Shown here one piece after another: positions 24,979 to 56,335 of a stretch of DNA of 64,000 bases. Numbering within the stretch: position 1 is the stretch's first letter; each line of letters begins with the position of its first letter. Location of the stretch: assembly GCA_017654855.1 (NCBI GenBank), contig CM030336.1:310001-374000 (forward strand), read 5' to 3'. A program made the translations under genes and the position numbers. The stretch comes from Podospora anserina (Eukaryota). The notes beneath the pieces were generated by a model. It ran no database searches and was not told the DNA's origin. It was given only the letters and a program-made list of their open reading frames with translations.

Positions 24979-26467
24979 TCAATATTGCCAGTCAGTTCCA
25001 ATCTCCCTCAAGTCCTCTATCAAAGCCGGCGGGTTATCCAGCCCGGCAAAGGTACCTCCAAAATCATGATCTGCCACGCTGTCAACATCTGATCTAGCAT
25101 CAGCAGAACGGTTCCAGACACAAAGACTTACTTCGATACTCGGTAAGATTCCCAACCATTGCAATCACCTCCCGAGGCCAAAAAGCAGTGTTGTACTTGA
25201 AGAAGCTCACAAGAAGCGGCGCATCCGTCCTCGCCCGTCTCGGCACTCTTTCAAAGGCACCCGGATCTTGAGCGTAGATGTATATCGATGATCGAAATGT
25301 CCCCGTGAGGTAGTAGAGTGAAACACAACGCAACAATTCGTTTGTCGTTAATATGGATGGGGCTGTACCGGCTCTTGGGTCCGACCCTGTGAAGAATGTC
25401 AGTGATGTGCCAGCGGCCTGTGTCAGGGCTACCCTACAGTCAATGTACTTGTCGCCTATCCAGGCTAGTTGTCCTACAGGGTTGTCGTGTAGGGCCAAGC
25501 CAACTGTGTTGGGCTGTATGGCAGACGTGAGTTAGTTGTTGTAGAAGTCATCCAATAATGCAAGTTACCTTACTAACCTTGGTTGTCTGCATAACAAAAT
25601 ATCCCATACCATTGACACCCCATTCCACCGACCTTTGCAATTCGAATTGCTCCAGCGGCGAAAGAGAAATATTCCTCGCTGAAATCTCCTCAGGGGTAGT
25701 AGGATGAAAGAACATAAACACAAGATGGGCAGCTCTTGCTGTGGTGTTGAACTCATCGTACAAAGTAAACGAGATAGCCACGCCATGAGCAGTTCCGTGG
25801 ACAGCGTAGGTTTCATAGCCAAGGACCTTCGTCATGAGCGTGTTGTACACACGTGCTGTGTCATCCAGTGTCCAATTTTGTGGCGGGGATGATGAGAATG
25901 CAAACCCGGGCAGTGAAGGGATGATGATGTCAAATGAGACATTTCTGCCGGTGGACGTTCTTGCTTGTTGGGTCAGATCTTTGATGATGGGTAGAAACTC
26001 TAGAAACGAGCCGGGCCAGCCATGGCATAGAAGCAATGGTATTGCGGTTGGGTCTTTGGACTTTTCGTGGATGAAGTGGATTTGGAGACCCTCAATTGTC
26101 ACTGCGTAATGATGGAATCTTAAAAAAAAATAATGTGTCAGTCCATTGGGCTAGCTAGTTCTAGGAGACAGACATACTTGTTGATAGACGCTTGTTCTCG
26201 TTCCCAGTCAAAATCATGAAGCCATTCTTGCTTCAGTGCTTTGAGAGCGTCGAGATCAATCCCGAAGGAAGACCCAATCCCTGGATACTGCGGTTTCGCC
26301 GGAAGCTGTGTTGACCGGATGAGATCCAGCATGTGAGGAACATTCTTCGAAAGGTTTACCCGAAATGGTTTAACCTTGAAGGGAGCCGCAGGTGATGGGA
26401 TCGTCAATGCCGGTGTAACAAGACCAAGCAGCGATGTCGTGAGGGTTACCAGTCTGAGCAGCATCAT
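24979..26467 (-). CDS. Secreted epoxide hydrolase-family alpha/beta hydrolase homologue (EHN domain), catalytic residues substituted; about 5 exons
   Basis: Signal peptide MMLLRLVTLTTSLLGLVTPALT, FDWEREQASIN, IEGLQIHFIH, LLLCHGWPGSFLEF, PSLPGFAFS and ALHDNPVGQLAWIGDKY. The last exon is HDFGGTFAGLDNP. Confidence 0.88.
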
Positions 26468-26646
26468 CTTGACGCTGTGGAACTTGTCTTTGCGCAAGCT
26501 GCATGAGAAAATGTCTTAGCTAAAGCAATGCAGCATTCTAATGTGACCCTTCTACCGTCTATCGCGTCTACCTATATCTCGGTGATTTCCAATTTTGGCC
26601 GTTTCCGCTGGTTGCCTGTGGTGTGTAACCAGCGGCTTATACGTCC

Positions 26647-28891
26647 TTATGCGGAGCCATTCACCTTTGATCGTCCGACCGCGAATTTCTCGCCCAACGT
26701 TACCCATGCGGCCACATAACTCAGAGTACGGAACGCTTTCGGATCAGCATGGTCGCCGAATCCCTTTTGCAGTGCATGCTCAACTGCGGCCCAGTTCACA
26801 AAGCCGAGGCCCTCAACTGCCTGTCTGGTCAGGAGGGTCTCAAACATGCGGTGCAAAGGACCCCCTTTAGGCCATTTGGTTGGTGCCAGGAAAGGGTGTT
26901 TTCTCCGTCGGTAAAGCTCATCAGTAATGAATGGCCTTACCGCCTCACGTAGAATCCATTTTTCAGTAAGACTGTGAAGACCAGAGCCGGCTGTCTTCCA
27001 AAGGGGACCCTGATTTTCTCCTTGCTTTGGCGTGGCTGTTTCGGCGGGATTGTACGATAGCTTAAGGCTGGGAGGAAGTCGGTTCACGTACTCGGCCAAG
27101 TGATGATCCAGGAAAGGGGTACGTGCCTCAACACTGTGTGCCATCTCTGTCCGGTCGCCCAGACACGACAAAAGGACATTGGCAAGACAGCTCTTATTCC
27201 ACATGTACAGGGCAGTGTGCAGTGGGTGCCAGCGCCCTCGCATCTTGGCGCGAACAGAAGCTGGGTGTGATGTAATAAGCGTGGCCCGGCAGTCGAGGTC
27301 TTGGAACTTGGATTGGACCCAGGGTGCAAAGAGGCCCTGGGTGGGATGCCACGCCAGGATACTCTCAGCCATACCCCGGGCGTTCGCGTCGGAAAGCGAG
27401 GGGTGGTCGAGCCGGCCGTCGTACTGGTTAGCACCGATATTGCGCCAGATGGCTCTCATCTCGGCATCCGTGGTCTGTCTCATGGCCTCGCGAAGCTCGT
27501 TGTCAGAGCTGAGTGTCGTATCTGGCAGCGCGAGGTCTGGCTCGCAGAGAAACTCGGCAGGGAAGTAGGGATATCCAGCAAAATGCTCGTCGGCTCCTTC
27601 ACCCGTGAGAACGACCTTGACACCATGATCTCGAGGTAGCGTAGACAAAGCAAACTTGGCCACAGTGTTGAGGTCGAAGTGGTGATGCTCGCAATGCCAC
27701 ACGGTGTCGGAAAAGTCGCTTGCCAGACGTGCCTCGTTGACATCGACTTTGATGGTTTCAACCCCAAGCCATTTTGCTGTTCTTTCTGCGATACTGGACT
27801 CGTCATAACCGGATTCTTCTGGGAATCGAACACTGAAGCAGGTGACTGGAGTGGTTGGTTCACGGTCTCCAATTTTTACATGCTCCGTCTTTGCCAGGTG
27901 GGTAACGATACCAGCGACAGCTGACGAGTCGATGCCACCAGACAGGTAAATGCCAACTGGGACATCAGCGCGCAGCCTAAGACGAATCGAATCGACCAGC
28001 CTTTCACGAACACCTTCGACCATCTCTTCAAGCGGCCTTGTCTCAACTTTGGTCTACCATGTGTTAGCACTATTCCCGCAAGAATGGCCAAGCGGCGATA
28101 TCCTTGTTACTGACCTTATCTTCATACTCAGCGTCCCAGTATACTTGATCTTCGATCCCCTTCTCCTCTGTCACCTGAAGCCAATGCCCAGGAAGGACCT
28201 TGTGGACTCCCTTGAAGAGGGTCCTGTCGTCAAGCATCCACCCACCGCTGACGATAGCATCAACGTCCCACTCGGCCTTCCATCCCAGAGGCAAAAAAGC
28301 CTTGGCCTCTGAGGCGATCAAGAGTCGATCGTTCGACACAGTCCACACCAACGGCTTGATACCGAACCGATCGCGAGCAGCGATCACTCTTCTTTTCCCC
28401 TCACGACGATCATACAAGACGAATGCAAATTCTCCCCGCAAGTACTTGAAGAAATGAGGAGCGCCGTGGATCTTGTACAAGGCTACCACGAGTTCACTGT
28501 CGCTTTCTCCTCGAAATTGGTAGCCATGCTGCTCGCGACACTCCTCCCACAGTCTATCTTGGTCGTAGATCTCCCCGTTTACGACAGCATGGATGCTTCC
28601 ATCATCACTGACAAGGGGTTGGGAGCCGCTGGGAGAAAGGTCGTTGATGGATAAGCGGCAGTGACCAAGGGCAATGCTGCTGTCTTGGCTGATCCAGACT
28701 CCGGCTTCATCTGGGCCACGATGATTCAGGATATCGATGGAGGACCGAAGTTGCTTTTCAATGGGACCAGCCGAGAACGTTGAGCCATTTGTCTGAGCTG
28801 AATTGTTTGCTGGAGGAGTTTGTTTGGCGACGGCAGGCTCTGAATCAAGCCTGCCTCGCGGGAGGGCAATGCTGGCTGTGATGCCGCACAT
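26647..28891 (-). CDS. Asparagine synthetase-like glutamine-dependent amidotransferase (cluster-type)
   Basis: N-terminal MCGI (Ntn Cys), HRGPD, NGEIY, ARDRFGIKPL, PP-loop LSGGIDSS, TGEGADE and EARTPFLD. Intron 28054-28114 joins the two ORFs in frame. Confidence 0.93.
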
Positions 28892-31762: not shown

Positions 31763-32453
31763 ATGGCACAAATCACCAGCGCACACCTCCAGACGCACAA
31801 CACAGCCAAAGACCTCTGGGTGGCAGTTCATGGATACGGCAAGTCAAAATATCTCTTCTTTTTTCACCCTTACCTACCTACGGCTAACAAGAAGTGCAGT
31901 CTACGACCTGACCTCATTCGCAGCCGACCACCCTGGCGGCATTGACGTCCTTCTCGAATGCGCCGGCACTGACGCAAGCGAGCCGTACGACTACGCTGGG
32001 CATGGTGATGATGCGACAACGACGATGCAAAAGTTTAGGGTTGGGGAGCTCGCTGGGTATCGCCATGCCAAGAGCAAGACGAACACGGGTGGGGGGAGGC
32101 CTGTTGCAGAGTCTGCTGGTGGTAAGGGGTCGTCGTCGTGGATTGTGAAGGCCGCATCGGTGCTCAATTCCAGGATGATTTTGTCCTGTCTGATCGGTGG
32201 TGCTGCGTTGCTTGGGTTGAAATTACTTCAGCGAGCGCCTGTTGAAGGGGTGGATGGGCGATCGTTCAGTGGGGTGGAACCAGTGTATTCGTTCTTGGGG
32301 GGGTTGCTTGTCGCGACGGTGGTCTGTCTTGTTGGTGCTGGGTATGTCTACAATGAGTTTAATCGGACGCTGAAGCCGGAGAAGGAGGTGTTCGATTATC
32401 CAGCGCTCATTCCAAGGAGAAGAGACAAAAAGCTTGAAACATTGAGCACTTAG
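31763..32453 (+). CDS. Cytochrome b5 heme-binding protein with two C-terminal hydrophobic segments
   Basis: HNTAKDLWVAVHGY|VYDLT..ADHPGG..AGTDAS..YAGH, with both heme His ligands present. The reading requires GC-AG intron 31839-31899. Confidence 0.9.
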
Positions 32454-32916: not shown

Positions 32917-33422
32917 ATGTCCCACCTTCCGTGTTTTTGCTACAAAGGATTTGGCGAAGAGAAGCGCCAGGAGCTTTGGTACAGCCAGGCTGTGCGTATC
33001 GGAGACAAAATTGAGTGCTCTGGTCAAGGTACGATTGCTCAGATCTGGTCTACCCTCTTCACCAACTAATCAGCGACAAAACAGGCGGCTGGAACCCCGA
33101 AACAAGCGAAGTCCACAAAAGCTTGTCCGACGAGTTCGACCAGGCGTTCAAGAATGTCGATCTAGCCCTTCGCACCGCTGGCGGAAAAGGGTGGTGTCAG
33201 GTGTACAAAATCCGTGTGTATCTTACCATCATTGACGACGAAGCGGTTGAGGCGTTGGTTCGCAACTTGAGGACGTGGATGCCGGATCATCAGCCTATTA
33301 TGACGGCGATTGGGGTGAATAAGTTGGGCTTGGAAGGGATGAGGATCGAGGTGGAGGCTGTTGCTCATGATCCCGAGGGGGCTGCGAAGCATGCTGCGGA
33401 GGAGGCAGCTGGTTCGCATTAG
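32917..33422 (+). CDS. Rid (YjgF/YER057c/UK114) family protein
   Basis: WYSQAVRIGDKIECSGQG|GW, QAFKNVDLAL and MRIEVEAVA. One intron at about 33029-33084. Confidence 0.9.
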
Positions 33423-33896: not shown

Positions 33897-35051
33897 ATGA
33901 CCAACCCGTCAGCAGCACCAGTTTCAACCAAGTTCCTAAACGTCCTTGTCATCGGCGCAAATGGCTACCTTGGAACTGCCATTTGCAGCGCCTTTCTACG
34001 AACCAACGCTCCACCAACCTCCTTTCGAGTCCACGGCCTCATCCGCCGCGAATCAGCCGCCCACCAACTGGCAATGAACGAAGTCATCCCCATCATTGGC
34101 TCTCTCTCCGAACCCGACATGGTCCGCACGGCTGTCTTGTCCCACAGCCCTGTCTGGGACATAATCGTCACCTGCACCGAACCCTCCAGAGCCACCGAAG
34201 CAGCCCACTGGTCTGACCTCTTGGCGTTTATCCAGGACTTGGCCTCGGAGTCCGCCTCCCACGGGGTTCGCCCCTTCGTCCTCTGGTCGTCCGGCTGTAA
34301 AGACTACGGCACGACAGGATTACACGGTGAAAAGAGCCTCACGCCGCATTCGGAGGACTCACCGCTTCAGTCTCACCCCATCATCCGCGGCCGGATGGAC
34401 GCCGCGTTGCGCGTTCTTGAGGTGGCCGGTGCCGAAGGATCCGACTTTACGGCTGCCGTGGTGAGGGCTACACCTGTCTTTGGATACAGCGGGAGCTACT
34501 ACGGCGCTGCGTTCGATTATGCCGCGGCATTTGCTGGTGTCTTCGGGAAAGATGATATCAGGAGTCGAACCCTGGACTTCACGTCAGATGAGGGGACGAT
34601 CATGCATGGAGTTCACGTTGATGACTGCGGTGAAGGGTACGTGGCCCTGGCGACGGCGGCTCTACCGGACGATGATCGTAGACGGAGAATCGCTGGCAAA
34701 GTCTTCAACATTTCTGGGAGGAGATATGAGACATTGCGCGAAGTAGGCGTCGCCTTAGCGCAGGAGTATGGATTCGGACACGGAGCGAGGTTCGGTCTAG
34801 CTCAAGACGAGCTGCCAGAAGCGGTTTCTGGGCATAATTGTGGACTCGTCTTTGGATGGAGCCAATGGGTGAGCAGTGAAAGGATTCGGAACCTGACCCA
34901 TTGGTGTGACAAACGGTCGCTCTTCTCAGAGAATATCGGTGTCTATAGGCTGGCCTATGAAGCTGCTATTGAGGCTGGATTGGATGACGTGGAAAAAGTG
35001 AGAAGACGAATGGCTGGGAACTGGGGGGATGATCACAAGGCTGCGGAGTAG
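33897..35051 (+). CDS. Atypical/extended SDR, NAD(P)-dependent epimerase/dehydratase-like oxidoreductase
   Basis: Rossmann motif VLVIGANGYLG, WSSGCKDYG, VVRATPVFG, VHVDDCGEGY and VFNIS. Intronless 384 aa ORF. Confidence 0.85.
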   Translation: MTNPSAAPVSTKFLNVLVIGANGYLGTAICSAFLRTNAPPTSFRVHGLIRRESAAHQLAMNEVIPIIGSLSEPDMVRTAVLSHSPVWDIIVTCTEPSRATEAAHWSDLLAFIQDLASESASHGVRPFVLWSSGCKDYGTTGLHGEKSLTPHSEDSPLQSHPIIRGRMDAALRVLEVAGAEGSDFTAAVVRATPVFGYSGSYYGAAFDYAAAFAGVFGKDDIRSRTLDFTSDEGTIMHGVHVDDCGEGYVALATAALPDDDRRRRIAGKVFNISGRRYETLREVGVALAQEYGFGHGARFGLAQDELPEAVSGHNCGLVFGWSQWVSSERIRNLTHWCDKRSLFSENIGVYRLAYEAAIEAGLDDVEKVRRRMAGNWGDDHKAAE

Positions 35052-35514
35052 ACCCTTGATCGTCAGACTGCATGTACACAGAGGCTTGACCTTTCATAGC
35101 TGGGTAGCCAGTCAGAGTGTATCGCTGAAATCTGTATTCAGTGCCGGGAACGGACGTACGCCGCTGCTGTACAAACCGCTGACTTTCGGCGGTATTATGG
35201 ATCCAGGAATCTGGCACAGCTCAACCCGAAACAGACTATGCCATATCATAGTGAAGTTGCGAATAGCCTCGTGGTCGTGTGGCCGCTTGTGATGGTTGTG
35301 ATGGGTTATCTGTGAGCCCAGAGACCGGGTGCTGCAGCATATCCGTATGGATAACCCAGTAAAATCCACATGCTCCGACTTAGAACAACCTTTGTGTGTT
35401 TTGGTTGTTCGAGGTCAACATATGCATCATGACTCTCTGACCGTGCCATATGCCTCCTTCAAAGAATGTAAGCCTCAAACTAGCGGTGACAAAGCTTCCG
35501 GGCGGTGTGCCATA

Positions 35515-35560
35515 ACGTGTATGATAAGCGAGCGCCGCAGATAAGCGAGCGCCGCACTTT
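35515..35560 (+). repeat. Left terminal inverted repeat of the DNA transposon
   Basis: acgtgtatgataagcgagcgccgcagataagcgagcgccgcacttt, containing the internal direct repeat GATAAGCGAGCGCCGCA twice. Confidence 0.95.
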
Positions 35561-36237
35561 TCGACGCGACTTAACCCTCCACCTTTAACATTCCATTTCT
35601 GAACCAAAAACCATGTCTTCTACCTCTAACGAAGCTAGAGTAATTCTGGCCGCTAAAGCTATAAAAAACAATAAAAACCTAAGTAAACGAACCGCAACGA
35701 AGATCTATAAAGTAAACGATAAAACTATTCGTTGTCGATTTACCGGTATACTTATACGATATAATACTTTAATTAATTCGCGTAAATTTATAGATCTAAA
35801 AGAAAAAATAATTATTTAATATATAATTAAATTATCTATATATATATTTTATTCCCGGCTTTCGTATATAAAAAATATAATTAATCGATTATTATATAAA
35901 TATAACACGCCTTCTATTAACGTACGATAGGTTTATAACTTTATTAAACGTTAGTTAGAACTTCGGACACGTTTTACGCGTAAATATAATTATTAAAAGG
36001 TTAAATATAAGGATTTAAAAGTTATTAGTAAGTAATTTATTTTTATATAAAATATTAAAATTAAATATAGTATTATAAATAATAATATTTATAATTTTAA
36101 TAAAATTAAATCTATAATAAATATTATTATTATTATTATAATTATTATAATTTTTAATAACCGTAATAAAATTAAATAAGTTTAATTTAATAATCGTAAA
36201 TAAATTATAATTATTTAAAGTATAAATATTTTAAATT

Positions 36238-36870
36238 TGTTAATGTGTGGGTACTACTAAGTGCCCTACTTACTGCCTTACAGATTGATATTACAGTGGG
36301 CAGTACTGCTATAAGCAGTAATGGAACTTCCCGGCTTGGATCCCTTTAGAATGTTCTTTACAAGGGACCCTTGAAGGCTTACAGGGCTACTGTGGCCTAA
36401 GGCTTAGTCAACAGGATACTGGAACCTTCTAAAGTGGCTACAGGCTTACGTAGTAAGTCGCTACAATGGCATGATTTACAGGGCACCTCTGCTGCCGAAG
36501 GTTCTATGGATTTCCGTGAGTCTACACTAGACCCACCTAAGCCCACCAAATACCCCAAAGTGGTATAGGGGCTTCCAGGGCCTACAGGACCCACAGTAGG
36601 CTTACGAAGGCCTATATATAGACCTCTCCTCTCTCCTGTAGAATAGTTTTCTTTCTTTCCTTAAGGGTAAAAGCTTAAGGCTAAGGCCAAAGGCCAAGGC
36701 CAAGGGTAATAAAGGTAATTCTTATTCCTTATACCTTACTGTATTATAGTGCTTTACTTTCCTTCGGCACTGCCGTCGTATCCTCCAGCTTCCGCTTGCG
36801 TACTGCTGTATTTTACAGTAACCCTGTATAGGTTCTATATTATAGGCCTATCAGGGCTTACTAGCTAATA
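36238..36870 (+). repeat. 5' LTR of the copia element (633 bp)
   Basis: TGTTAA...CTAATA with the terminal CA mutated to TA; direct repeat of 42066-42698. Confidence 0.95.
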
Positions 36871-36939
36871 GGTTATGAGCCCGGGCAACTACCTAGCCCG
36901 GAATCTAGCTTACTTGTGCGCTTCCAGTCGACGTACCTA

Positions 36940-37232
36940 CAGCACTGTACTATAGGCTGTACGGCTTCTTACTAAGAAGCCTTTTCCAGTGGAATTAGCG
37001 CTGTACTATAGGCTTTACTACTGCTGTGATTATAACTCTGGCCAATACTTTTAGGCCAATTTACAGCACTGTACTATAGGCTGTATAGCTTCTTACTAAG
37101 AAGCTTCTTTAGTGGAATTAGTGCTGTACTATAGACTTTCTACTGTTGTGACTATAACCTTAGGCCAATACCTTTAGGCTAATCGTCGACTTATAGCACT
37201 GTACTACAGGCTGTACGGCTTCCGAGAAGCCT
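36940..37232 (+). repeat. ~123 bp tandem repeat (about 2.3 copies) in the retrotransposon 5' leader
   Basis: A unit beginning acagcactgtactataggctgtacggcttc recurs at about 36940, 37063 and 37192. Confidence 0.8.
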
Positions 37233-39026
37233 ACTTATTAACCTATACGGTTATTTTTACTAAGTCCTCGCCTTTACTATGGCTAACTAGCCTATGGATT
37301 AAGACTAGTTAGGTGTTATAGAGGCTACTAGCCCTATGGTACAGGCCTTATAGGCCCGTATCGACACCATTGAGGATAGGCTTCGGCAGGTTATATTATT
37401 GCTTGAAGCTTAGGCTATTAAATAGCTAGTAGCTGTACCGGCTACCTACATTACCGAGCCTCCCGTGGCTCTAGCTGCTTTAGTACCTTTAGTACTTATT
37501 ACAGAGCCTTTTATAGCGACCTTTAGCACACTTATTACAAAAGAGCTCGCTAAATAGTCTTTAAACCTCGCTAAATAACAGCGCTTTTCAGGACCCGATA
37601 ACTACTAATAGTGGTACTAAGCTATTTCTATATAATTTAGGGCCTTTAGAATACTTAAATTTCTAGAAAATCCTAATTCGGTAAACGCCCGGCTTTCCGA
37701 CCTACAGAAGGCAGCCCTGCTATTGACCCTCAGAAATACACTAAAGGAAGGCCCGTTATCCACTATAGCCTTCGAAACCGACTCCGTTGTGGCCTATAAG
37801 CGCCTTCGCTTACAGTACGCTCCGGCGCAGCTTACCCTCCGAGACGAGCTATATAAGGCCTACCACTACTTGCAGTTCGATAGGTTTATACCTATCGTGG
37901 ATTTTAACGCCTAATTTAATACTTACGTAAGTAGGCTCGGGGCTTTAGGCGTTAAAATAGCCTAAATCGATTAACTAAACCACTATTTTAACGTACTGGA
38001 AAACTATTTTCCATAGTGGGCCGAGCGCTGTAAAGGCCTACTTCGGTAGGAGTAATGGCTCTACTATATAGAAGGCAAGCCTACTAGGCTAAGCCTTTTA
38101 TATTTCTAGGAAAACCTTTTAGCCGAAACCCGTAATTCGGTTACTTTCACTGCTTACTAATTATAGGCCCTACAGGCTACCTATAAGCCTGTTAGTAGCG
38201 AAAAGAAGCCTAACTTTTAGGCTTCTTAAGCTTACCGGTCCTTACTAAATAAGGACCAAAAGCCCTATAAAAAATAGGGCAATAAGCAGTGGAAGAAAGG
38301 CTTGAAAAAGGACGACCGCTGTAACGACCGCTATAACGGCCGCAAAGACGGCCGTAAGGATAGTCGTAAAGACGACCGTAAGGACTAAAAGGACCTACCC
38401 GCTACCGAGGCCTTTACTATAGGCTACGACCTTAACTCAGGCACTGTATTTGGAAGTAATATAACTGAGGAATATAGCGACCTAGGGCCTGATCCTCCCG
38501 AAGAACTGGCTAAATTTAGCTACTTAACCGCTATACTACGTACTTAGTGGCTCTTCGATATAGGCTCTATAGTGCATATCTATAATAATAAAGCTTTATT
38601 TACTAACCTACAGTTCTCTTTTTCCCTAGGCTATATTGATATAGGCGGTGGCCCAGTTAAGCTATAAGGTAAAGGCACTATAGAAGTTGAATTTTTTAGT
38701 GGTTTTGAGGGTAAAAAAGCGGTATATACTACTATAGCCTTTAAGGAAACCTTTTATATTCCAGACTTTCTACTAAATATAGTTAGTAGTTACAGGCTCT
38801 ACGCCTCCGGTGGGACCCTTCTTAAGGACCGCCTATATTCGGCTTCCAGGAAGCTACTGGCCCTCCTTAACTTTAAGAAAAATGGGTTCTTTTTTACTAC
38901 TAAAACCACGGTTCCAGCTAAAATAGAGCATTTAACGCTATAAGTATACGGCTCTATTTGGTGCTACAGCACTGAAGATAGCGATTTAGACCCTAAATTA
39001 ACTACTATTACGCTTGAATTTCTAGC

Positions 39027-42992: not shown

Positions 42993-43412
42993 TGTGACGA
43001 ACCCCTGTACAGAACCTCTGAAAGGGATACGGGTTGAAGGTAACTTCTGACAATTAGTTCGGTGTAGCTAAATAGTGCACAACAAGATGTCTCGATGTAA
43101 ACACAAGATGCCGTGAATACAAGCTTGAATTGCATACTGCGGAACTGTCTATCTACACCAGCCAGTTCCTCCGTATATATAGACCTCGTGCCAAGCCCTG
43201 ATCATAGTGATCATTCCGCTCGTTCCCAATGATCACAATGATCGCTATGATCCTCCGTGGCTCCCTATTGGTTGTGTTGCCGCGATCACTTTGTCTTCCC
43301 AGTCTGCTGTCCATGATCGCGTATCCTTGTCCTGATTGGTCCTGCTAGCGATTGGCTGTGCGTCTTGTGCCCCGCACACGGTCCGTCCTGCCTGTTTGGC
43401 TTAACTGTGACA
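42993..43412 (-). mobile_element. Solo LTR (420 bp) of a second retrotransposon family, not visibly RIPed
   Basis: TGT...ACA termini with 5 bp TSD TTCTC (42988-42992 and 43413-43417). Balanced GC and abundant CA/TG dinucleotides inside an AT-rich host. The minus strand reads CCAAT three times and then TATATA, which suggests orientation. Confidence 0.88.
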
Positions 43413-44220
43413 TTCTCCTATATATTTTAATTATTAAATATTAATTATTTTATATTATTAAAAAGGATATATAGTTATTAAACTAAATAATTAATATAAA
43501 TAAATATTATATATATTAATAAATTAAAGTTTTTTTATATATTTAAAGAAATATTTTTTATTTCGATTATAAAAAAAAATATTTAAAGAGATTTTATTAA
43601 AGCTAGCTTTATATTATATAATTTAAAAAAAATAATATTTAAATTAAATATATATATTCGGACCCTAATACCCTTAACCTTAAACCTAATTACGGTACTA
43701 CCTTAAATCTCTTAAACGTTATATAACCTTTAAAAGGTTACTTTATAATTAACGTTTATTAAAACTCGAATTTTTAATTATTAAAATAGCTTTCTAACCT
43801 TAATACTAACCGCTATAAACTAATTTACTAAAGGAATAATAAATATAATATACGAGGTGGCTCTTCTCCGTATAAAGGTCTTTTCGCTACGCAAGGCTAA
43901 TAAGGAGCTTAGTAAGAGACGGAGAGCTAAAAAAACATGTGTGCGGCTTAGAGGGTCACTTACTATATAAGAGGTATAGGATCTACTAGATCAAAAGGCT
44001 ATAGGTGAGCAGGTAGCCCAGGAAATACGATAAAGTGGTGGTGGTGCAGGGGGGTCTCGTACGAAGATTCGGTGCTGTAGCGTGTGCGGTAAGCCTGGCC
44101 ATAATGCACGTATATGCCAGGAGGCTACAGAATCATCTGATTCATCTATTTCTAGTTCAGTTATCGTTGTTTCCTAGTGTTATGGTTATGTAATTGAGGA
44201 TAGCTGTGGTAGGGTGGTAG

Positions 44221-44266
44221 AAAGTGCGGCGCTCGCTTGTCTGCGGCGCTCGCTTATCATGCACGT
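44221..44266 (-). repeat. Right terminal inverted repeat of the DNA transposon
   Basis: The reverse complement matches the left TIR with two C/T differences; followed by TA at 44267-44268. Confidence 0.95.
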
Positions 44267-45514
44267 TATGCTAAACAATAAAATAGGCAAGCATGCTAGT
44301 CGTCGGTTGTACGTTTGACTTGGCTGCATCTTGAGAGCCTCGACTGGTTGAGGCGTTCCCAAAGTCTAAATCAACTAAACTCCGCCCAAGTTTCGTAATG
44401 ACTCGGGGTTCCGGCAAGGGGTGTTCGGTGTGCAGATTGAGTCAAGAGCCCACCGAGGTTACCAAAAACGGTATGTAGATAGTGCGAGTGGGACAACACC
44501 TGCTGCTTCTAATTTCTGGGTTGACAGATGTCAGGCACGCAACACCTCGTACTTCTCGCATTTCAGGTTGCTTGCACCTCCTCGCACTGCTGCACGTCTT
44601 GAACATCTCCCTGTGATGAGCGGTAAGTTTTGCTCCTGAATCAGCTTCCACCTCGGTCTTAAACTGCAGATCCAAGCTCATTTCTCCGCCGGCACATGGA
44701 AAAGCGTTTCTTGGTATCTGGTCAGCGGCTGTAGATGAATCTTTCAAACTCCGGGTAGCGGTGGTGTAACCTTCCCAGTGGTGGGCCGTATGTCTCAAAT
44801 CAACGGTAACAACGCAGTCGTAATTGCTGCATTTGATCTGCTCAGCCTCCTTGGTCCGGGTCCGGATAACACCGTCCACTTCCACACTTGGTGCTGACCA
44901 CCTCACCCAAACTCGGAAGCTGATATTTGGTGTATAGACTGCAGTGCGACCGAGAATTTGTTTCCCCGGCTGTTTGTGGGCTCATTCGCGCGTTCGTACT
45001 GTGGGACCTAATGAAGCCATTGTGTTTCAAATACCCAGATCCCGGCCCCCCGAGTATAACTGTCCTACGTGGATGCATAGCTAGGTAGGCAGGCATGCAT
45101 GCTGGTACTTTAAGGCACATAGGATTGACCCTTGCAGGCTGGTACCCAACGATCGACAAAATCGAATGCTGGATTCTCAATGTACAGTACGATTCCCAGG
45201 GCTGAGGTGGTGACAGGCCGTTCCCGTCCCTCGTGGCGACAGCTCAAGGTAGGGATGCAAAAAGCCGGGAGGTGTGCGACCGACTTAGACCCGCGATGAT
45301 GGCTGTGGGGGTCCTGGACCTGGGACAACGTACATGCGGGCAGGCCCCGTATGCCTGCAGTATTGTTGATCATCATGTTGTATGGTATAATAGCTTGAGA
45401 GTCTCCCATCCACATGCATTGCTGTTGCTGGGTGTTGTTAATTCCTGCGAAGTGATCAGCGTGCCAGCCTACTAAATTTCCCGGTGCCAGACCTATACCT
45501 CAGCAAAGCAAACA

Positions 45515-47079
45515 ATGTTTGGTACATTAAACGTAGCGCATGATGTTCGGCAACAGACACCGTTAAAGTTTGTGGAGAACAGAGATCTATCATCGGCACT
45601 GAGCCGAAACAGTCGAGAGAAACCTCATGTCTCCTGTGAGTTTTGCAGATCGAGAAAAGTACGTGGAGCACCCCCCTTGTCGATCCCGATGAAGTATCGA
45701 GGCTCACAAAGTTATGCAGGTTCGATGCAGTGGTCAGCCCTCGGGTTGTAATCGATGCCAGGCTGTAGGAACCCAGTGCAGGTACCCTCCGCGTGAGCCA
45801 CGACGGAAGAACCGAGCCGGAACTGGTGGTGACAAGACTGGCACCGACACCCAGTCCCAAAAGCCAAAGTCAGATTCAAAGCCGTCGAATGAGCAGGATC
45901 AGGGTCTAAAGTTCAGCAAACGCGGAACATCTGAAGAGGGAGACGGGTCAGCGCCAGGAGTCGACCCGCAACTTTTGGATCAAGAGATGAAGAGTAATAG
46001 TTACTGGTACCAAGAGTTTGGCGGTCATGGTCTGGCTACTCCCATCTCACCGCACTCTGGTGAAGAGCAAGGCAGTAATGACAGACTGGACGACTGGTTG
46101 GACACCAACGGCATTTTGGAGTCAGAATTTCCCTCGATCCCGGGAAGGGTGGACGATTTCCACCATTTCAATACCGACATGCTGAACTTTGGCACTGTGG
46201 ATGGTGGGAATGACAATTATTTCAATGGTGAGTTGTTCCTTCGTTTTGTCTGCCATCGCCTCGTCGTTAGCATAAAAGTTCTGACCGATCTGTGCAGCCC
46301 TTAGACAATCAGCACCTACAACTCCGGCTCTTGTGAACTTCCCGGATCATATGGTCCTGTTCGAGGCCCCGGCCTCAATTCCTGAAAGAAATCCATCCAA
46401 CAAGAATGCTTCCAACCACCAGGAAACGCTCAGGCATCTATCACCATTGTCATCATGCCCATCGAGCCACAATCCTGCCACCCCATCGACTGCCGAAGAT
46501 ACACAGATGGCGAATATGGCCGAGTTATCCGTGACGAGCGGCTCCTGTGGTTGTCTCCAGCTCGCAGCATGTCTCCTTGAGGAGCTGGGTACAAAAGCGG
46601 CGGCAGGTGACCGTGACCGTGTTCGGATGGATGTCTTGTTGGGCGACTTCCGCGATGCACTCACACAATGCACTGACATTCTTGATTGTGAGCGCTGTGT
46701 TGAGGCACGGGAAATCAACATGCTCTTGGCCATGTCTGCAAAATACACGAGCACAATGTGCCAACGATTGGCAGTATGTTATGCAGAGCTCAAGCGAGCT
46801 CGGGGCTCGGAGAAAGATGGTGGGGGAGTGGGGGACTTGAGGTTCTCGACGTACCAGATCGAAAGTCTCAAGGAGCAAGTCGAGGTGCTTGGCTGTCTTG
46901 TGATGGTCCAGATAGACGACTTTGCGCAGATAATCGCGAGGTTGAAGACACGCCCGGGCATTCGGAAGGGACACTTGACGCTGCTGGCGGAGGCGAGGAA
47001 CAAGGTCAACGCCTTGCAAGTCTTGTTCCGTGGAAGACAGGATAGTTCGTTTGTGAACAGTGTAAATAATATGTATTAG
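45515..47079 (+). CDS. Zn(II)2Cys6 pathway-specific transcription factor
   Basis: SCEFCRSRK|VRCSGQPSGCNRCQAVGTQCRYP across intron 45659-45719; second intron 46228-46297. The C-terminal CGCLQ...CERC region resembles AflR-like cluster regulators. Confidence 0.9.
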
Positions 47080-47553: not shown

Positions 47554-48448
47554 CTAAAGATTCCAGTGCGCAAAACGATCGCTCATCCCAATAGCCCAGT
47601 CCAAAGCCCTGATCACCTCCTTCACCTCGCTCGGCTTCTGTGGTGGCTGGTGGCCACCGCTGTGCACCATCTTCTTCGCCAACTTGGGCTCACAAACAGC
47701 ATACGCCACGTCCGACATGGCCCTCATGAAGCTGTAGTCCTTTTTTCCCGCGACATGAACAGTCGGGATCCAGATCTTCTGCTTGACGAACGAAGGGTGC
47801 ATAATCCTTGGCGCTAATGACGGATCACCCCCGGCCTCATAGATGCTAAGGTCAATATCCGGCAAGAGGGCATTGTTTTTTCTGGCCTCTCCCACAGTGC
47901 GATCGAGAAGCTCGACAAAGACACGCTGCTCCTGATCGACTGCTGAAGGATCCGTTTGATCGCAGAGACTTTGGATAACCTCCTCACAGACACCGACATC
48001 GGCGGAGCAGGGGATGACAGACGACATGATCAAGGCGAACTTGAAAGGGCGGAGTTCATTCTGCGTTTGCTTTCTGTGGAGGTAGGAGAGGGCGAGGGCA
48101 CCGCCTTGGCTGAAGCCGAGGATGCCATCAAAGGGACCGAGGTCGTCAATTGTCCTGTCGAGGTGCTCATGGGCTTCGATCATTTGTTCTGGTGAGTAGC
48201 CAGCCGTGTGGGAGAAGAAGGGACCATCGAAGGCGGCCATGCCTGTTGATTGCAATGTTAGTTTTCCGCTACTAAACTCAAGTACTTGTGGTTGATCTGA
48301 AGCACTTACCAGGACCTTGCTCGCAAGGGAAAGGCCCATCCACAAAGACAAAGTCAAAGCTTGGATCGACTGCCTTGAGAAATGGCCGGAGCTGGGCCTC
48401 CAACATCTTCCCCGAGCTGCCTACTCCGTGGAGACACAACACACGCAT
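47554..48448 (-). CDS. FSH1/LovG-type serine hydrolase (putative polyketide-releasing esterase)
   Basis: MRVLCLHGVGSS, GPFDGILGFSQGG, IPTVHVAGKKD and HSGGHQPP give an intact Ser-Asp-His triad. Intron 48243-48309; divergent from the PKS. Confidence 0.92.
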
Positions 48449-48919
48449 GGTAAAGGTTGGTAAGAATGATACACCAAGGAAATGCAACAAACCGTTCAAG
48501 TTGAACGTTGGAAAGTAAACAACAGAGACTGAAAAGAAATATGAACAGGGCTGACTGAATGGGGAACATGCATACAGATAGCCCGTCGAAGAATGCTCGC
48601 TTGAGGGCTCTGCGTACCTGCTGCCCATTACCCCATTTGGCCCTCTCCGTCACACAGCCACACGGACTTAATGTCGGACAGCCAAGCCTCACTCGCGATA
48701 ACACTGCATCAACTCGGTCCGTAACACTTACAGACGGATGGACTGACGATCACTTTTCACACAGAGTCGCACAGTACTGTCTGGATATGCCTTCGTGATG
48801 GGAGCAAGACTTTACAAAACGACTTCATTGTCTCCCCATGGTCCGTCTTGAATGACCAGGATCCTACAGAGTTAGAGCAGGTATCAGAAGACAAACAGAA
48901 AAAGCTTCAGCCCGCAGCA

Positions 48920-51900
48920 ATGGATAACAGTCAGCAAGAGCCCATCGCCATCATCGGCGCTGCATGCCGTCTCGCTGGAGAGGTCTCGTCCTTGGGGACC
49001 CTGTGGGACATGATCAGCAACCGCAAGACTGGTCATGGCAAGATACCTGCTGAGAGGTGGAATGCTGATGTCTGGCACCATCCTGACCCAGACAGGAAAG
49101 GAGGTGTAAGTTAATCCCTGAAGAAAAGTACGTTGGCGGTACGTGTTGACTGACTTGGTAACCAGATTGCCGTCAAACATGGGTACTTTCTCAAGCAAGA
49201 CGTAGCCCACTTTGATGCGCCCTTCTTTTCTACCACTGCCAAAGAAGCGGCAGCAATGGACCCCATGAAGAGACTGCTTCTTGAAGTCAGCTATGAGAGC
49301 ATCGAGAATGGTGAGTTTCCTTTGTGCCAAGGGGCCAACATGATGCTGACATCTACCCGCAGCTGGAATACCAGTGGAGAACCTCATGAACTCACGGACA
49401 GGCTGTTATGTGGGTTGCATGACAAACGACTACGAGATGCTCTCACTCCACGACATACATGACATTGGTCACAATGCTGCGTCAGCAACGAGCGAGGCTA
49501 TGACAGCCAATCGTGTATCGTGGTTCTTTGGGCTCAAAGGGCCTAGCCTTACCCTGGACACCGCTTGCTCGTCCAGTCTGTACGCGCTGCACCTCGCATG
49601 CCAGTCGCTGAGGACGAAGGAGACAGATTCGGTACGTTGAATCTCTGTCCAACTTCAGTCCCTCACCGTGGTATGATGTTCTGACCTTGCTGATAGGCAC
49701 TTGTTGCTGGGGTAAACCTTCTCCTTGTCCCCAACACCATGCATCAGCTCTCAGCGATGCACATGCTCAGCCCTGAAGGGATCTCACACACTTTCGATGA
49801 CCGAGCGAACGGTTATGGTCGTGGCGAGGGTATTGGCTCCCTCATCGTCAAGCGCCTCTCTGACGCTATTCGAGACGGTGACACCATCCGGGCTGTCATC
49901 CGCGGTACTGGTGCGAACGCCGACGGCAAGACACCAAGTATCACACAACCGAGCTCGGTCGCTCAAGCTGACTTGATCAGAGACACTTACGCTGCGGCCG
50001 GTCTCCCTCTCACAGACACCCAGTACTTTGAGTGCCACGGCACAGGCACACCAGTTGGCGACCCGATAGAGCTTGAAGCCTTAGCCACAACATTCGGCGT
50101 GGCTCGGAAGGAGGCTGGCCTTGGCCCTCTCTACATTGGTAGCATCAAGCCCAGCGTGGGCCACACCGAAGGCTGCTCTGGTCTGGCAGGCGTCTTCAAG
50201 GCTATTGCTTGCCTGGAAAATGGCATGCTCGTTCCGACATATGGCGTTGAGACCATCAACCCCAAGTTGAAACTCAAAGAGTGGAATTTGGCGTTGCCAC
50301 AGGAGACAGCACAGTGGCCTACCCCTGGGCAACGCCGGATCAGCGTGAATTCGTTCGGATTTGGCGGCGCCAATGCCCACGCCATTCTTGATGACGCTCA
50401 CCACTATCTTGCCGAGCGTGGGTTGGCAGGAAACCACAACACCATCGTCTGGGAACGTGATGGTGCTTATGCTAATGGACATCACCCAGTAGCCGACACG
50501 CCGCGGCTGTTCCTGCTTAGCTCCAAGGACCAGGCTGGCATCCCTCGCCTGGCTGATGTTTACGCAAAGGCACTTGACGCCGCTCATTCTGCCAAAGAGG
50601 ATTCCCACTATCTCAGCAACCTGTCGTACACTTTGGCTTCCCGAAGATCTCACCTCGACTTCAGGAGCTTTGCCGTTGCTTCAACTTTATCGGAGCTGAC
50701 AGAGAAGCTTTCTAAAGGGCTTCCAAAGATTAAGCGCTCAGCCCGACAGGACAACAACCTGGTCTGGGTGTTCACAGGACAAGGAGCCCAATGGTCAGCC
50801 ATGGGACGGGAACTCCTCGGCAACCCAGTCTTTGACAAGAGTGTCCAAGCCTCACAAGTCTATCTGGCCAATCTCGGCTGCGCCTGGGATGCGGTCGAGG
50901 AGCTCACCAAGACAGCTGGTTCCAAGATGCAGTTATCTGAGTACAGCCAGACGCTCTGTACTGTCCTCCAGGTCGCCCTCGTCGATTTGCTTCGGTCTTG
51001 GGGGATCAAGCCTCGGGCCACAGTCGGACATTCGAGTGGTGAAATCGGTGCTGCCTACGCCGCGGGTTACATCAACCGCGCTGATGCCGTCAAAATTGCC
51101 TACATCAGGGGTCTCAGCTCTGCAACGGTTACCAGACAAGGAGCAATGTTAGCCGCTGGCCTTTCCCGTGAAGAAGCTAACGAATATTTGACAAAGGTCC
51201 CAGCACAGTCTGCGGTCATTGCTTGCATCAACAGCCCGTCCAGTGTTACTCTGTCGGGTGATCTTAATGCCATCCATACCCTTGAGAAGCTGATTTCGGC
51301 TGATGGCAAATTTGCGCGGACACTGAAAGTGAAGACGGCATACCATTCGCCTCACATGCGCGCCGTTGCTCAAGGCTATCTCGAGCGTATTGGCCACATT
51401 GATACCACTGCCGAAGGGGCTAACGCCAACAAGACAGTCATGTACTCCTCGCTGACTGGAAAGATCGTTTCACCAAAAGAGCTCAGTGCTCAATACTGGG
51501 TTGCCAACTTGACCTCCCCTGTCGAGTTCTCGGCAGCGTTATCAGCCCTTCTCGCCCACACTGTGGCATCCACCACTGGCCGTGGAAGACCAGTCCCCGT
51601 TCGCTGGGGCGGCATCCTCGAGATCGGCCCTCACTCCGCACTGCAGGGGCCTATCGGTCAGATCATGGCAGCGAGCAACTCGGAAGCCATCAAAGAGACA
51701 CCCTACATGTCACTGCTCCTCCGTGGCAAAGACGCAAGAGAAACATCACTCTCTGCTGCTGCTCAGCTCTGGGCTCTCGGCCACACGGTTGAGCTCTCTG
51801 CAATGGTCGACTCCTTCGACCTTCCCGACACAAAACTCCAGCACAAAGCCTTGACTGACCTGCCCGCCTACCCTTGGAACCACTCCCGCCGCTTCTGGCA

Positions 51901-54900
51901 CGAGGCCTACATCACGAAGTCCAACCGCTCCCCCAAATTCCCCAGAACTGACTTTCTGGGCGTCCCGGTTGACATGCAAAACAGCATGGAGCCCAAATGG
52001 CGCAATCACCTCCGTATCACGGAGAACCCCTGGATAGAAGACCACAAGATCACCGGAACAGTCCTCTACCCCGGCGCAGGGATGCTTGTCATGGCGTTGG
52101 AAGGTGCCCTCCAAGTCTCCGACCCAACAAAAAATGTCCACGGCTTCCGCTACAGCAACATCCGCTTTGAGCGGGGCCTCGTCGTCACAGCAGCAGATGA
52201 ACCCGCAGTCGAAACATCTCTCAGCCTTCATCCTGACGCTAACATCCCCGGCAAGTTCGGCTTCACAATCTACTCCACCACCGGGGACTCTTGGACTTGT
52301 CACTGCCATGGTACAATCTCCCTCGAGTACGACGCCAACGGCTCAAGCGAGGTAGAAGACGCAGGTACGGCTGTTGACCCCTGGACCCTGTACACGGCCA
52401 GATACAAGCAGCTCTTCTCCGACTCTGGCGCCGAAGAAATCGACGTTGACGAGTTCTACGACCAGCTCGAGACAATCGGCATGGAATACGGGCCCCTATT
52501 CCGCAACGTCACTTCGCTGTTTGCAGTCCCAGCCCAACACGCCGCCCACGGCGAGGTCATCATCCCAGACACTGCCTCCGTCATGCCCATGAGCTTTGAG
52601 TACCCCCACGTCATGCACCCCGCGACAATGGACGCAATCTTCCATTTGTTGCTGGCAGGCTTCAACGACGGCCGTCCCATTGACGAGGCTGCAGTGCCGT
52701 ACAGCATAGACGACATGTTCGTTGCCAGCGAGCAACCCCACGGCGCCGGGTCAAAGTTCCTAGGGTACGGCCAGCTGACAAGAAAGAGCGGAGGTGGCCG
52801 CGAACTGGTGGGGGATCTGGTGATTTCGGACGAGAGGTGGTCTGGGCCAAAGATGGTCATCAACGGATTTGCTCTTCGCCAGGTCACATCTGCTGATGAT
52901 GCTGGAATTTCCGGCTCCCAGGAGGACACTTTGAAGAAAAAGTGCGCTCGTGTCACTTGGAGTCAGGATACCGACTTCATCAAGACAAGCGAACAGCTTG
53001 TGGGTGTGTCGACTGATGCGTCGTTACTAGCTCAGCTGTCTGCTTGGTTTGATCTCTTGCAGCGCAAGAAGGCTATTGGGGAGGTCTTGGTTGTTGCGAG
53101 GGGACAATGTCCCGGCACCTCGGAGATTGTGGGCGATGTGTGGCGTCGTGTCCGCAGCCGTGAGGGCTTCCAGAGTGTCAAAGCTGTGTCAACCTCTGCC
53201 TTTGGTGTGGAACAACTCCGTGCATTAGTTCCGAATGCTGAGCCTGTCGATCTGTGGGACATCTCTGGCGACGCCGAACCGCCCGCGTCAAGCAAAGGTT
53301 ACGACTTGGTCTTGGTGATTGGAACCGACAGCTACCCCGACTTCTCCACCGAGCTGCAGAAGCTGGCTCTCCTTCCGCAATCTCATATCGTTCTCATTGG
53401 CGAGAAAAATGTTGAGGCCTTTAGCTTAGAGGGGCACCAGTCGTCTCTCCACCTCCAAGGGAATGGCGATGCAGCGGTGGTGTTTGCATTTGCTGCTGAA
53501 GAAGCCACAGTTCCGCTGGAAGTCTGTCTTCTTCTTCCATCTCCCACTTCCAAGCAAACTTCAGCGTTGGCCTCCAATCTCACAACAGTGCTCTCTGCTA
53601 GTGGCATCAACGACATCAACACCATCACCTTGTCTGACCTCAGCACCCTCGACCTCACCAGCAAACACGTTATCTCCCTACTCGAGTCCGATAAACCCTT
53701 CATCTACTCATGGAACGAAAACGAGTTCACAAGCTTCAAGTCACTCATCTCCTCCGTGGACCATCTGTTCTGGCTGACCCATGGCGGTGTCCTACAATCA
53801 TGGGCAGGAGGCGTAGAGTTCGCCGCAGCTCAAGGCTTGCTTCGTGTCTTGCGCAATGAGTATACCCTCGCATCCTTGCCCCATCTCGATCTCTCCATTG
53901 GCTTTGACAGCACGACGCTCTCGAGTGCCGAGCTTATCGCCTTCGTGTGGCGGGCTTCACTTTTGGAGGGGGCCGAGATGGAATATGCCGAGTTCGAAGG
54001 CAAAGTTCACATCCCTCGTGCTGTGGCCGATGTCGGATTTGACGGGGATTTGCAGCTTGCTGATGGGACAAAGCAGCCTATCCTTGGACCTCTCAAGGGC
54101 GGTAAGCCGCTGAAGCCGATTGTCGTAGGGGCTGAGAAGAAGATTGTCTGGGTTGAGGACGAGGAGGCATCACTACCGCTTGGTATGACTGAGGTGGAGG
54201 TACAAGTCGAGTTCGTTGGGCTGAGCAGTGGCAACACCTTCTCGCTGACTGGCACTGTTGACGATGACTCCATTACTGTACTCGATAGGTGCGTGGATGC
54301 AGTTGGTGTGGTATCTCGTCTCGGAGGCGGAGTAAACTCGCTCGTTGTTGGCCAGCGTGTTGCTGTCTTGAAGGGACATGGGTGCAAAACTCACGTTCGT
54401 CAGGATGTCAGTTTGGTGGCCCCCGTTCCGGATAGCATTCCTTCAGAGAAGACCGCGGCATTGCCAAGCGCATTCATTACTGCTTTGTATGCCTTGTCTC
54501 ATGTCGCAAGATTGGACAAAGGTCAGACGGTGCTCATCCACTCTGCTGCCAGCGCTCCAGGACAAGCAGCCATTCAGATTGCTCAATACCTTGGAGCTGT
54601 CGTCTTTGCTTTGGTCAGCTCCAAAGGGGAGAAAGCCATCCTTGTGGAACAGCACGGCTTACCTGTGACGCGCATATTTGATGCTGGGTTGCTAAACTTT
54701 ATTCCCGCTATTGGCAACGAGACAGGGGGTCGTGGTGTCGATGTTGTGCTCGCGAACGAGGCAGATGCTGCTGTTTCGGCATCCCTGGCCACGCTTGGTG
54801 ATTTTGGGGTCTTAATCGATCTCAGAAGCAGCGAGTCTACCGGCAGCATCAGCCCTCCATCCGGCAAGAAGAATGTATCCATCGTTCGTGTCATCATGGA

Positions 54901-56335
54901 CAGCGTGGCTCAGGCAAAGCCTCACATCATCAAGAGCCTGTTCCAACAAACCTTTGACATCCTCTCAACCAACACCATCAGGCCCATCACACCTACCACC
55001 GTCTTCTCCGCCAGCGATGCTTCTCAAGCACTGCAAACCGCCACAACACAAGCTCACGGGAAAGTTGTACTATCCCTCCAAGGGAGCCCCTCAGTCCTCA
55101 TCCCTCCCGCCCCAGCCCCTGAACTCCAATTCGACCCCTCCGCAACCTACATCATCGCCGGCGGTCTCGGAGCTTTAGGTCTCAACATCGCCGACACGAT
55201 GATTGCGCAAGGAGCCAAGCACCTCATCTTCCTCTCCCGCTCGGGCGGTACGAAGAACCAATCCGACCTTGCCCGCCTCCGTTCCCACGGCATCACAGCC
55301 GAGGCCTTCCCTTGCGACGTCACCAACTCCACCTCTGTCTCCAAGGTCTTCTCCCACCTCCGAAGCGCCAAGCACAAAATCGCTGGTGTGATCCAATGCG
55401 CCATGGTTCTGGAAGATGGCATCTTCGATAACATGACCCATACCAAGTGGTCCCGCGCATTTGCTCCCAAGTCGGCCGGCTCCCGGAACCTCCTTGCTCA
55501 ACTCTGGCCAGATGAGCAGCCCTTCTTTATCTTGCTGTCGTCAATTACTGGTGTGATAGGCAACACCGCCCAAGCAAACTACGCCTCAGGCAACACGTTC
55601 GAGGATGCCCTAGCCCTCTGGGCTCGAACCCACCTTCGGATTGCCGCGACAAGTATTGACGTCGGGTTGGTAGCTGACTCCTCTCACTTCACCGAGGCAG
55701 GTGAATTCGGTGATTTGGAAGGCTACCTTCACCGCTACCAACACGGCTGGAACGGACTCCAGACCACACTCGACGAACTCCGCGTCGTGCTCAAGTCCAT
55801 CATGAGAGGGAGCACCGCCGACGGTGGCAACATCCCCGCACAGCTCGTCCTCGGACTAGGTGACTCCCTCATCCGGGATGAGAACGGTACTGGCTTCGCA
55901 AAAGACAAGAAGTTTGAGCTGCGGGTCGTGAAGTTGGACAAGAGCGGGGGTCAAGCAGGGGGGAAGACGGAGAAGATCGGGGAGGTGTTGAGTCGAGCGT
56001 CTAGTGTCAGTGAGGCGGCTGCTGCGGTGGAGGAGTACATCAAGTTGCAGATTGCTGTTGCGATTGGGGTTGAGGTGGGCGAGGTTGATGCGCAGAAGCC
56101 CTTGCCGGAATTTGGAGGTACGTGCCCCACGTCGACGTGTGAAATGTTTAATCGGGATACTGACATGGGCACAGTGGACTCGCTCAAAGCGGTTGAGATC
56201 AGGAACTTGTGTTTGAGGGAGATGCAGAGTGATATTTCTGTGTTTGAGTTGTTGAGTTCGACGCCCGTGGCCGAGCTTGCAGTCAAGATTGTGACGAAGA
56301 GTGGGCTGGTCAAGTTGGATGCTGAGGCTGTCTGA
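48920..56335 (+). CDS. Iterative reducing type I polyketide synthase, KS-AT-DH-(degenerate cMT)-(ER, probably inactive)-KR-ACP
   Basis: [54 protein letters not shown]-like [27 protein letters not shown] and ACP GVDSL after splicing 56118-56174. Three introns lie in the 5' region (49.1-49.7 kb). Confidence 0.96.

Follow-up and report, generated by a model that had tools for sequence, protein, structure and literature searches.

The 64,000-nucleotide stretch of Podospora anserina DNA analysed here (the window; assembly GCA_017654855.1, contig CM030336.1, positions 310,001 to 374,000 of the forward strand) holds, at window positions 24979–56335, a set of biosynthetic genes that includes the polyketide synthase (PKS) gene Pa_5_2090 and the amidotransferase gene Pa_5_2140. 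In our reading, which we consider probable while leaving real room for doubt, the locus is an intact, transcribed cluster belonging to a five-gene family of Pezizomycotina, in which a polyenoic acid is made, released, amidated and oxidized by a cytochrome P450 together with cytochrome b5. The conserved core of this widespread cluster family comprises the PKS, an FSH1 hydrolase, an asparagine synthetase B (AS-B)-type amidotransferase, the P450 and the cytochrome b5. In the proposed pathway, the PKS would build an unbranched, conjugated polyenoyl chain on its acyl carrier protein (ACP), and the FSH1 hydrolase would free the polyenoic acid. The amidotransferase would then adenylate the carboxylate and transfer glutamine-derived ammonia to it, giving a primary amide, and the P450 with cytochrome b5 would oxidize the acid or the amide. 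The SDR, Rid and epoxide-hydrolase-like proteins of Podospora may modify the product further, under a Zn2Cys6 regulator. By analogy, the first three steps rest on experiment in the homologous soa cluster; beyond it, we infer how long the chain is, what the P450 does and what the accessory genes contribute.

All nine gene families of the original prediction were found within 24979–56335 by Pfam scans of stop-to-stop open reading frames (ORFs), gene models and, for the regulator, an RNA-spliced Zn2Cys6 motif. The two divergent pairs it named are likewise real, judging from the start positions of the gene models. The amidotransferase ATG at 28891 (−) faces away from the P450 ATG at 29409 (+), and the hydrolase start at 48628 or 48448 (−) faces away from the PKS ATG at 48920 (+), each pair having a promoter region of about 0.3–0.5 kb in common. 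The closest relatives of the encoded proteins are Podospora proteins with 98–99% identity. By exact sequence look-up, the PKS is PODANS_5_2090 (Pa_5_2090), the hydrolase _502100, the SDR _502110 and the amidotransferase _502140. The cluster is present in six named members of the P. anserina species complex, and in P. comata eight genes, from the amidotransferase through the PKS, have consecutive accessions. These genes are not mentioned in the excerpts of a P. anserina biosynthetic gene cluster paper (PMC9864250) covered by a text search.

The two halves of the locus, which lie on either side of a transposon block, can be regarded as one system because the linkage between amidotransferase, P450 and cytochrome b5 on one side and PKS and hydrolase on the other recurs in many fungi. 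At least 29 of the 120 listed amidotransferase relatives are paired with a listed PKS relative, a pair being defined by the same named species and an equally long contig and counted by eye from the two tables of relatives. Seven of these 29 pairs lie on contigs shorter than 90 kb, and five have locus tags three apart (diail_6961/6958, PWT90_01624/01621, TRUGW13939_09151/09154, ASPCAL13427/13430 and VTL71DRAFT_15564/15567). At least 14 more species appear in both lists with unequal contigs, possibly from fragmented or different assemblies, or as paralogues. Linkage of hydrolase and PKS, by a shared contig or adjacent locus tags, was found for 18 species among 57 hydrolase relatives, as in ASPCAL13429/13430, where the amidotransferase is 13427. 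The co-conservation across the transposon block that the single-system view of the original prediction calls for is thus what was found.

A metagenome scan with the amidotransferase alignment, from which 80 loci were kept, gave the same picture. In three near-alike loci (L001, L002 and L005), which probably represent one lineage, the order is PKS–b5–P450–amidotransferase over no more than 12.5 kb, and a GH47 gene comes next. At a fourth locus (L012), the P450 is divergent from the amidotransferase, the same arrangement as in the window. The P450 genes adjoining the amidotransferase at these four loci show 73–78% identity to the window P450. Within the first three, the P450 (73–78%) is the best-conserved core gene, ahead of the amidotransferase (63–67%) and the PKS (55–56%). 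Other amidotransferase-like loci with 44–52% identity (among them L004, L006–L009, L011, L034, L035 and L072) were treated as paralogues from different settings and left aside; where such loci are long enough to show neighbors, no relatives of other window genes were present.

The soa cluster of Myrothecium sp. FJNU6 (Xiao et al., Nat Commun 2026, PMC13284220; GenBank PX619210) makes sorbic acid and sorbamide. According to the available sections of that report, SoaA is a highly reducing PKS with the domain order ketosynthase (KS), acyltransferase (AT), dehydratase (DH), enoylreductase (ER), ketoreductase (KR) and ACP, and together with the hydrolase SoaB it yields sorbic acid. The AS-B-type enzyme SoaC forms sorbamide from ammonium or glutamine with ATP, and no asparagine is made. 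The same five families are found in the window: a PKS lacking a methyltransferase, a hydrolase acting in trans, an AS-B-type amidotransferase, a P450 and a cytochrome b5. In addition, the pathway order in soa, release followed by ATP-dependent amidation, equals that proposed for the window. The Podospora locus differs in its additional Zn2Cys6 regulator, SDR, Rid protein and epoxide-hydrolase-like protein, and in being split by the transposon block. The core is therefore a five-for-five match to soa in gene families, and no new chemistry is involved. The original prediction had described a gene set that could not be assigned to any characterized cluster. This no longer holds, as soa contains the same five core families, going by the sections of the report at hand, and the cerulenin cluster has also been published. 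Its proposed route of hydrolytic release and subsequent amidation is supported by the soa precedent (PMC13284220), and for the same reason the route is not new. Nitrogen entry without a nonribosomal peptide synthetase has also lost its novelty, because it is already known from soa, where the available sections demonstrate it, and, by citation, from the cerulenin pathway.

The amidotransferase (Pa_5_2140, 26647..28891, −) carries much of this comparison. Its two-exon gene model (exon 1, 28891–28115; intron, 28114–28054; exon 2, 28053–26650 plus the stop codon) encodes 727 residues, and a near-identical annotated relative (P0001) of equal length is 97% and 99% identical to the two exons. The protein begins with MCG and contains the Pfam domains GATase_7 (PF13537) and Asn_synthase (PF00733). 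The Cys after the initial Met, the glutamine amidotransferase domain and the Asn_synthase PP-loop domain place it among the class II glutamine amidotransferases of the asparagine synthetase B type. The residues reported to matter in SoaC, in the sections available, are 350SGGIDS355, E463/D466/E467 and K695 (PMC13284220). Every one of these motifs is kept in the window enzyme, along with Cys2: SGGIDS lies at 297–302, the acidic residues are E411/D414/E415 and the lysine is K644, all of them invariant in 21 of 21 aligned relatives. As a stand-in for SoaC we used a Paramyrothecium protein (P0070), in which the motif numbering equals that of SoaC plus 2. It is 60% identical to P0001 and falls in the same well-supported 48-row clade as the window enzyme, with PKS linkage scattered throughout the clade. 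Among solved structures, 1CT9 and 7YLZ are its best relatives (E = 3e-38 and 2.5e-37), and both combine, as it does, an N-terminal Cys glutaminase domain with a PP-loop synthetase domain; a PDB search returned no structure of SoaC. The fungal amidotransferase differs from AsnB in being about 170 residues longer and, by analogy with SoaC, would act on a hydrophobic polyenoic acid instead of aspartate. The clade that holds a PKS-linked Helicocarpus enzyme also contains Histoplasma and Paracoccidioides members, and Blastomyces and Emergomyces proteins are among the amidotransferase matches listed.

The PKS (Pa_5_2090, 48920..56335, +) is of the highly reducing, iterative type, as assigned from Pfam, an alignment with a relative (P0121), sequence motifs, RNA joints and its locus tag. 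Its architecture is KS-AT-DH-(structural region)-ER-like-KR-ACP, without a C-methyltransferase (C-MeT) domain. Pfam recognized KS, AT, DH and KR, together with a weak ER-type match (ADH_zinc_N) below its cutoff, and gave no methyltransferase match in the protein. Four introns interrupt the gene, at 49106–49165, about 49311–49362, about 49632–49696 (this third one from the P0121 alignment alone) and about 56118–56174. The first three are short and interrupt the KS-coding part, and the upstream exons encode the KS active site, DTACSSS. Removal of the last one, a 57-nucleotide in-frame intron spliced in four of four RNA runs, creates the ACP motif GVDSL (spliced reading, PEFGVDSL). The annotated model from P. 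anserina S mat+ has 2412 residues, 19 more than the 2393-residue models of sibling species, so it probably retains this 57-nucleotide intron. The ER cofactor motif is degenerate, and close relatives read HSAASALGQAA or similar; GGVGQAA occurs in none of the 120 best PKS relatives. Because a C-MeT domain is missing and the ER cofactor motif is degenerate, the expected product is an unbranched polyenoic acid. Inactive ER domains permit polyenes, according to the portion of the literature at hand (PMC12828468), and the polyene label of the original prediction fits both features of the enzyme.

Release of the chain would fall to the FSH1/LovG-type serine hydrolase (Pa_5_2100, 47554..48628, −), identified by Pfam (FSH1, PF03959), an alignment with a relative (P0241) and an RNA-supported intron. 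LovG-type FSH1 hydrolases release the products of fungal highly reducing PKSs, and the window enzyme resembles them in its PF03959 fold, its GxSxG nucleophile (here GFSQGG) and the head-to-head position of its gene with the PKS. This likeness is one of family, and the releasing role proposed here is drawn from SoaB and the gene position. The single intron, at about 48242–48308, is spliced in RNA contigs of runs X1 and X8. Annotated 335-residue models of the hydrolase begin 60 residues ahead of the typical FSH1 start, MRVLCLHG, and a 261-residue variant is also among the known sequences. The long model is probably over-extended at its N-terminus, the more likely start being the Met at 48448.

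The oxidative part of the core consists of the P450 (29409..31092, +; Pfam p450, E = 1e-63), divergent from the amidotransferase, and a two-exon cytochrome b5 (31763..32453, +; Pfam Cyt-b5, start read off the translation) with hydrophobic C-terminal stretches. The P450 gene has a short first exon, modeled from the sequence, followed by an intron near 29.48–29.55 kb. The first-exon region, 29409–29560 (+) (MSTMETLDELKSELGRTFGFVDAT...), is not hydrophobic, and the P450 may therefore be without the usual N-terminal membrane anchor. The original prediction had the P450 and cytochrome b5 oxidize the amide, a step that found no support in soa. The strong conservation of the P450, higher than that of any other core gene, still makes oxidation by these two proteins plausible.

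Expression was probed in sequencing runs presumed to be RNA; for four of them, contigs spliced at GT..AG joints show that they are. The presumed-RNA runs hold 0.24–0.78 of the sampled words of 26600–35100. Four of them, from four studies, hold 0.55–0.78 of the words of the amidotransferase side, and in the region 44400–64000 the same four gave spliced contigs from the regulator, hydrolase and PKS genes. The PKS intron at 49106–49165 is spliced in X1 and X5 and that at about 49311–49362 in X5; an APC1 intron is spliced in all four runs. Contig cover is absent from parts of the PKS interior and from 56.8–58.1 kb, and this absence was not used as evidence. Transcription is evident for the regulator and the hydrolase, and weakly so for the PKS. 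Both halves of the cluster are thus transcribed in the same samples, a statement of presence and not of co-regulation.

Several observations weigh against the five-gene reading with its oxidation step. In the available sections of the soa report, the P450 and cytochrome b5 are described as giving no new product in A. nidulans (PMC13284220). Apart from the amidotransferase, the likeness to soa (PX619210) is one of family description and not of sequence for the PKS, hydrolase, P450 and b5. In the amidotransferase tree, the window enzyme and the SoaC stand-in belong to separate subclades, and the 120 best PKS relatives include none from Paramyrothecium or Myrothecium. The inactivity of the ER is judged against GGVGQAA, taken as the canonical cofactor motif, with no positive control. 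The PKS contigs are short, with a depth of 1–6 compared with 28–33 for APC1 in X1 and X5, contig depth being a poor gauge of expression. In the metagenome loci, no SDR, Rid, regulator or epoxide-hydrolase-like gene was detected next to the core, and the four are treated here as additions of the Podospora lineage with uncertain roles. The epoxide-hydrolase homologue, moreover, is without its nucleophile, and no product is known from Podospora.

A rival reading is that the locus is a direct orthologue of soa, with a PKS that stops at the triketide, sorbic acid and sorbamide as products, and the P450, b5 and other neighbors idle. We judge this unlikely. In its favor, the five families and the PKS domain order are the same, every SoaC catalytic motif is kept, and the P450 and b5 were idle in the soa study as far as its available sections go (PMC13284220). 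However, a P450 that remains 73–78% identical in distant fungi, compared with 55–56% for the PKS and 63–67% for the amidotransferase, argues for a working enzyme. The SoaC stand-in belongs to another subclade, Stachybotryaceae are not represented among the 120 best PKS relatives, and the chain length is not readable from sequence. Within the favored five-gene reading, we propose, tentatively and with more doubt than belief, that the true end product of the family, which occurs in at least 29 species from several classes of Pezizomycotina, is an undescribed oxidized polyenamide, a reactive, cerulenin-like small amide formed through the very well conserved P450 and b5 that were silent in the soa study. 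Podospora would tailor it further with the SDR, the Rid protein and the nucleophile-less epoxide-hydrolase fold, which may serve in binding or isomerization.

The cer cluster of Sarocladium spp. is reported to make cerulenin (Shang et al., Angew Chem 2025, doi 10.1002/anie.202414941). There, an unmethylated polyene acid from an iterative PKS reportedly becomes a primary amide and is oxidized, and the window has matching PKS logic and oxidoreductases. A cerulenin-type product can be envisaged, in which a longer (e.g., C12) polyenoic acid would be amidated and then epoxidized, reduced and oxidized by the P450 with b5, the SDR and the epoxide-hydrolase-like protein to an epoxy-oxo amide. The P450, the SDR and the epoxide-hydrolase fold are all present in the Podospora locus. 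Publication of the cerulenin cluster is cited in the available portions of two papers (PMC13515044, PMC12828468), the second of which describes the precursor as an unmethylated polyene from an iterative PKS, a logic that the window PKS domains fit. However, according to the accessible part of PMC13515044, the cerulenin cluster was located by way of a self-resistance gene related to the target, fatty acid synthase (FAS), and no such gene was seen among the window ORFs examined. Among its ORFs, the large ones are the PKS, APC1 and an ARID protein only, none of them FAS-like, and the small ones were partly scanned; among the ORFs scanned with Pfam, ketoacyl-synthase domains occur in the PKS only. 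The missing FAS-like resistance gene speaks against cerulenin itself, and the epoxide-hydrolase homologue without a nucleophile further reduces the case; we hold a cerulenin-type pathway to be improbable. A literature search with cer gene names gave unrelated papers only, and one for a fungal highly reducing PKS with an amidotransferase and a primary amide found nothing.

It is very improbable that two unrelated gene groups have been brought together here, the PKS and hydrolase yielding a free acid and the amidotransferase, P450 and b5 acting elsewhere. About 9 kb of transposon DNA does lie between the groups, and the evidence on co-transcription is one of presence. Nevertheless, the linkage recurs over five classes of fungi, compact transposon-free loci included, and each of the four RNA runs contains transcripts from both sides. 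Least credible of all is the proposal that Pa_5_2090 is the orthologue of N. crassa pks-6 (NCU02918), making neurosporin A or a relative, with the amidotransferase side unrelated: an accessible portion of a preprint (10.1101/2024.12.09.627484) does write "Pa_5_2090/pks-6", which also counts against our reading, and the N. crassa cluster has an epoxide hydrolase, eph-1, as described in part of PMC9239088, but Neurospora and Sordaria contribute none of the 120 best PKS relatives (NCU02918 itself was not aligned) while other Sordariales reach 68–82% identity, the terms "asparagine synth" and "amidotransferase" are not in the searched excerpts of PMC9239088, and in 29 species the amidotransferase accompanies a PKS of this family.

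The five-gene reading makes a concrete, testable prediction for the uncharacterized cluster Pa_5_2090 to Pa_5_2140 of a model fungus, and it places the gene set for sorbic acid and sorbamide within a fungal cluster family that is widely conserved. No role was detected for the P450 in the sole characterized member, yet no other core gene is as well conserved. The labeling of Pa_5_2090 as the Neurospora pks-6 counterpart is also called into question.

Among the accessory genes, the Zn2Cys6 transcription factor (45515..47079, +; 477 residues) is assigned from spliced RNA contigs and its Cys motif. Its introns, at about 45659–45719 and 46227–46296, are RNA-spliced in three of the four runs (X1, X6 and X8). 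The motif CX2CX6CX6CX2CX6C is complete only once the RNA-supported 61-nucleotide intron is removed, and the Zn_clus match of the unspliced ORF is weak. Upstream of the regulator, at 44600–45140 (+), low-depth spliced contigs with four GT..AG joints were present in run X1 only, two of the joints being alternative donors that share one acceptor. These contigs could represent an extended 5′ leader or an independent non-coding transcript. On the other side of the transposon block lie a two-exon Rid/YjgF (L-PSP) protein gene (32917..33422, +; Pfam PF01042, E = 3e-10) and a single-exon gene for an atypical SDR of 384 residues (_502110, 33897..35051, +; NAD-dependent epimerase/dehydratase-like, Pfam PF01370). 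The exact sequence of the SDR is known, and it clusters with five named Podospora proteins tagged _502110.

The epoxide-hydrolase homologue (24979..26467, −) has several exons, with Pfam EHN and Abhydrolase_1 matches spread over three ORFs; its exon layout and start come from six-frame translation, without RNA confirmation. In the part at 25548–26150 (−), alignment with solved enzymes places HGTAHG of the window opposite QGGDLG (5f4z) and QGGDIG (8xiz), while the oxyanion loop HGWPGS is retained. With GTAHG in place of GGDLG/GGDIG, the nucleophile Asp that characterizes microsomal-type epoxide hydrolases (GGDxG) is gone. The last exon gave no PDB match. In the C-terminal stretch DFGGTFAGLD, Thr may also take the place of the catalytic His.

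The sequence between the two cluster halves is transposon DNA mutated by repeat-induced point mutation (RIP), extending over about 35500..44400 and recognized by GC content, RIP indices, ORF remnants and direct repeats. GC content there is 0.27–0.43 and TpA/ApT is 1.2–2.2, compared with 0.5–0.6 for TpA/ApT in genes; the window otherwise has a GC content of about 0.52–0.57, the AT-rich block standing out at 36–44 kb. Two 300-nucleotide direct repeats (36238–36537 and 42066–42365), 94% identical and 5828 nucleotides apart, flank copia-like remains, and a pogo/Tc1-like DNA-binding remnant at 35589–35819 lies ahead of this copia-like long terminal repeat element. The element family names were read from ORF remnants, not from database matches.

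Housekeeping genes bound the locus on either side. The left flank, to about 21.8 kb, carries an MFS transporter, PGAP2IP, UTP6, the ARID protein and eIF3e, and on the right APC1 starts at 57.9 kb. PNP_UDP_1 domains occur N-terminally in fungal NLR-type proteins, and a fragment of this phosphorylase superfamily lies just left of the cluster, at 24013–24474 (+).

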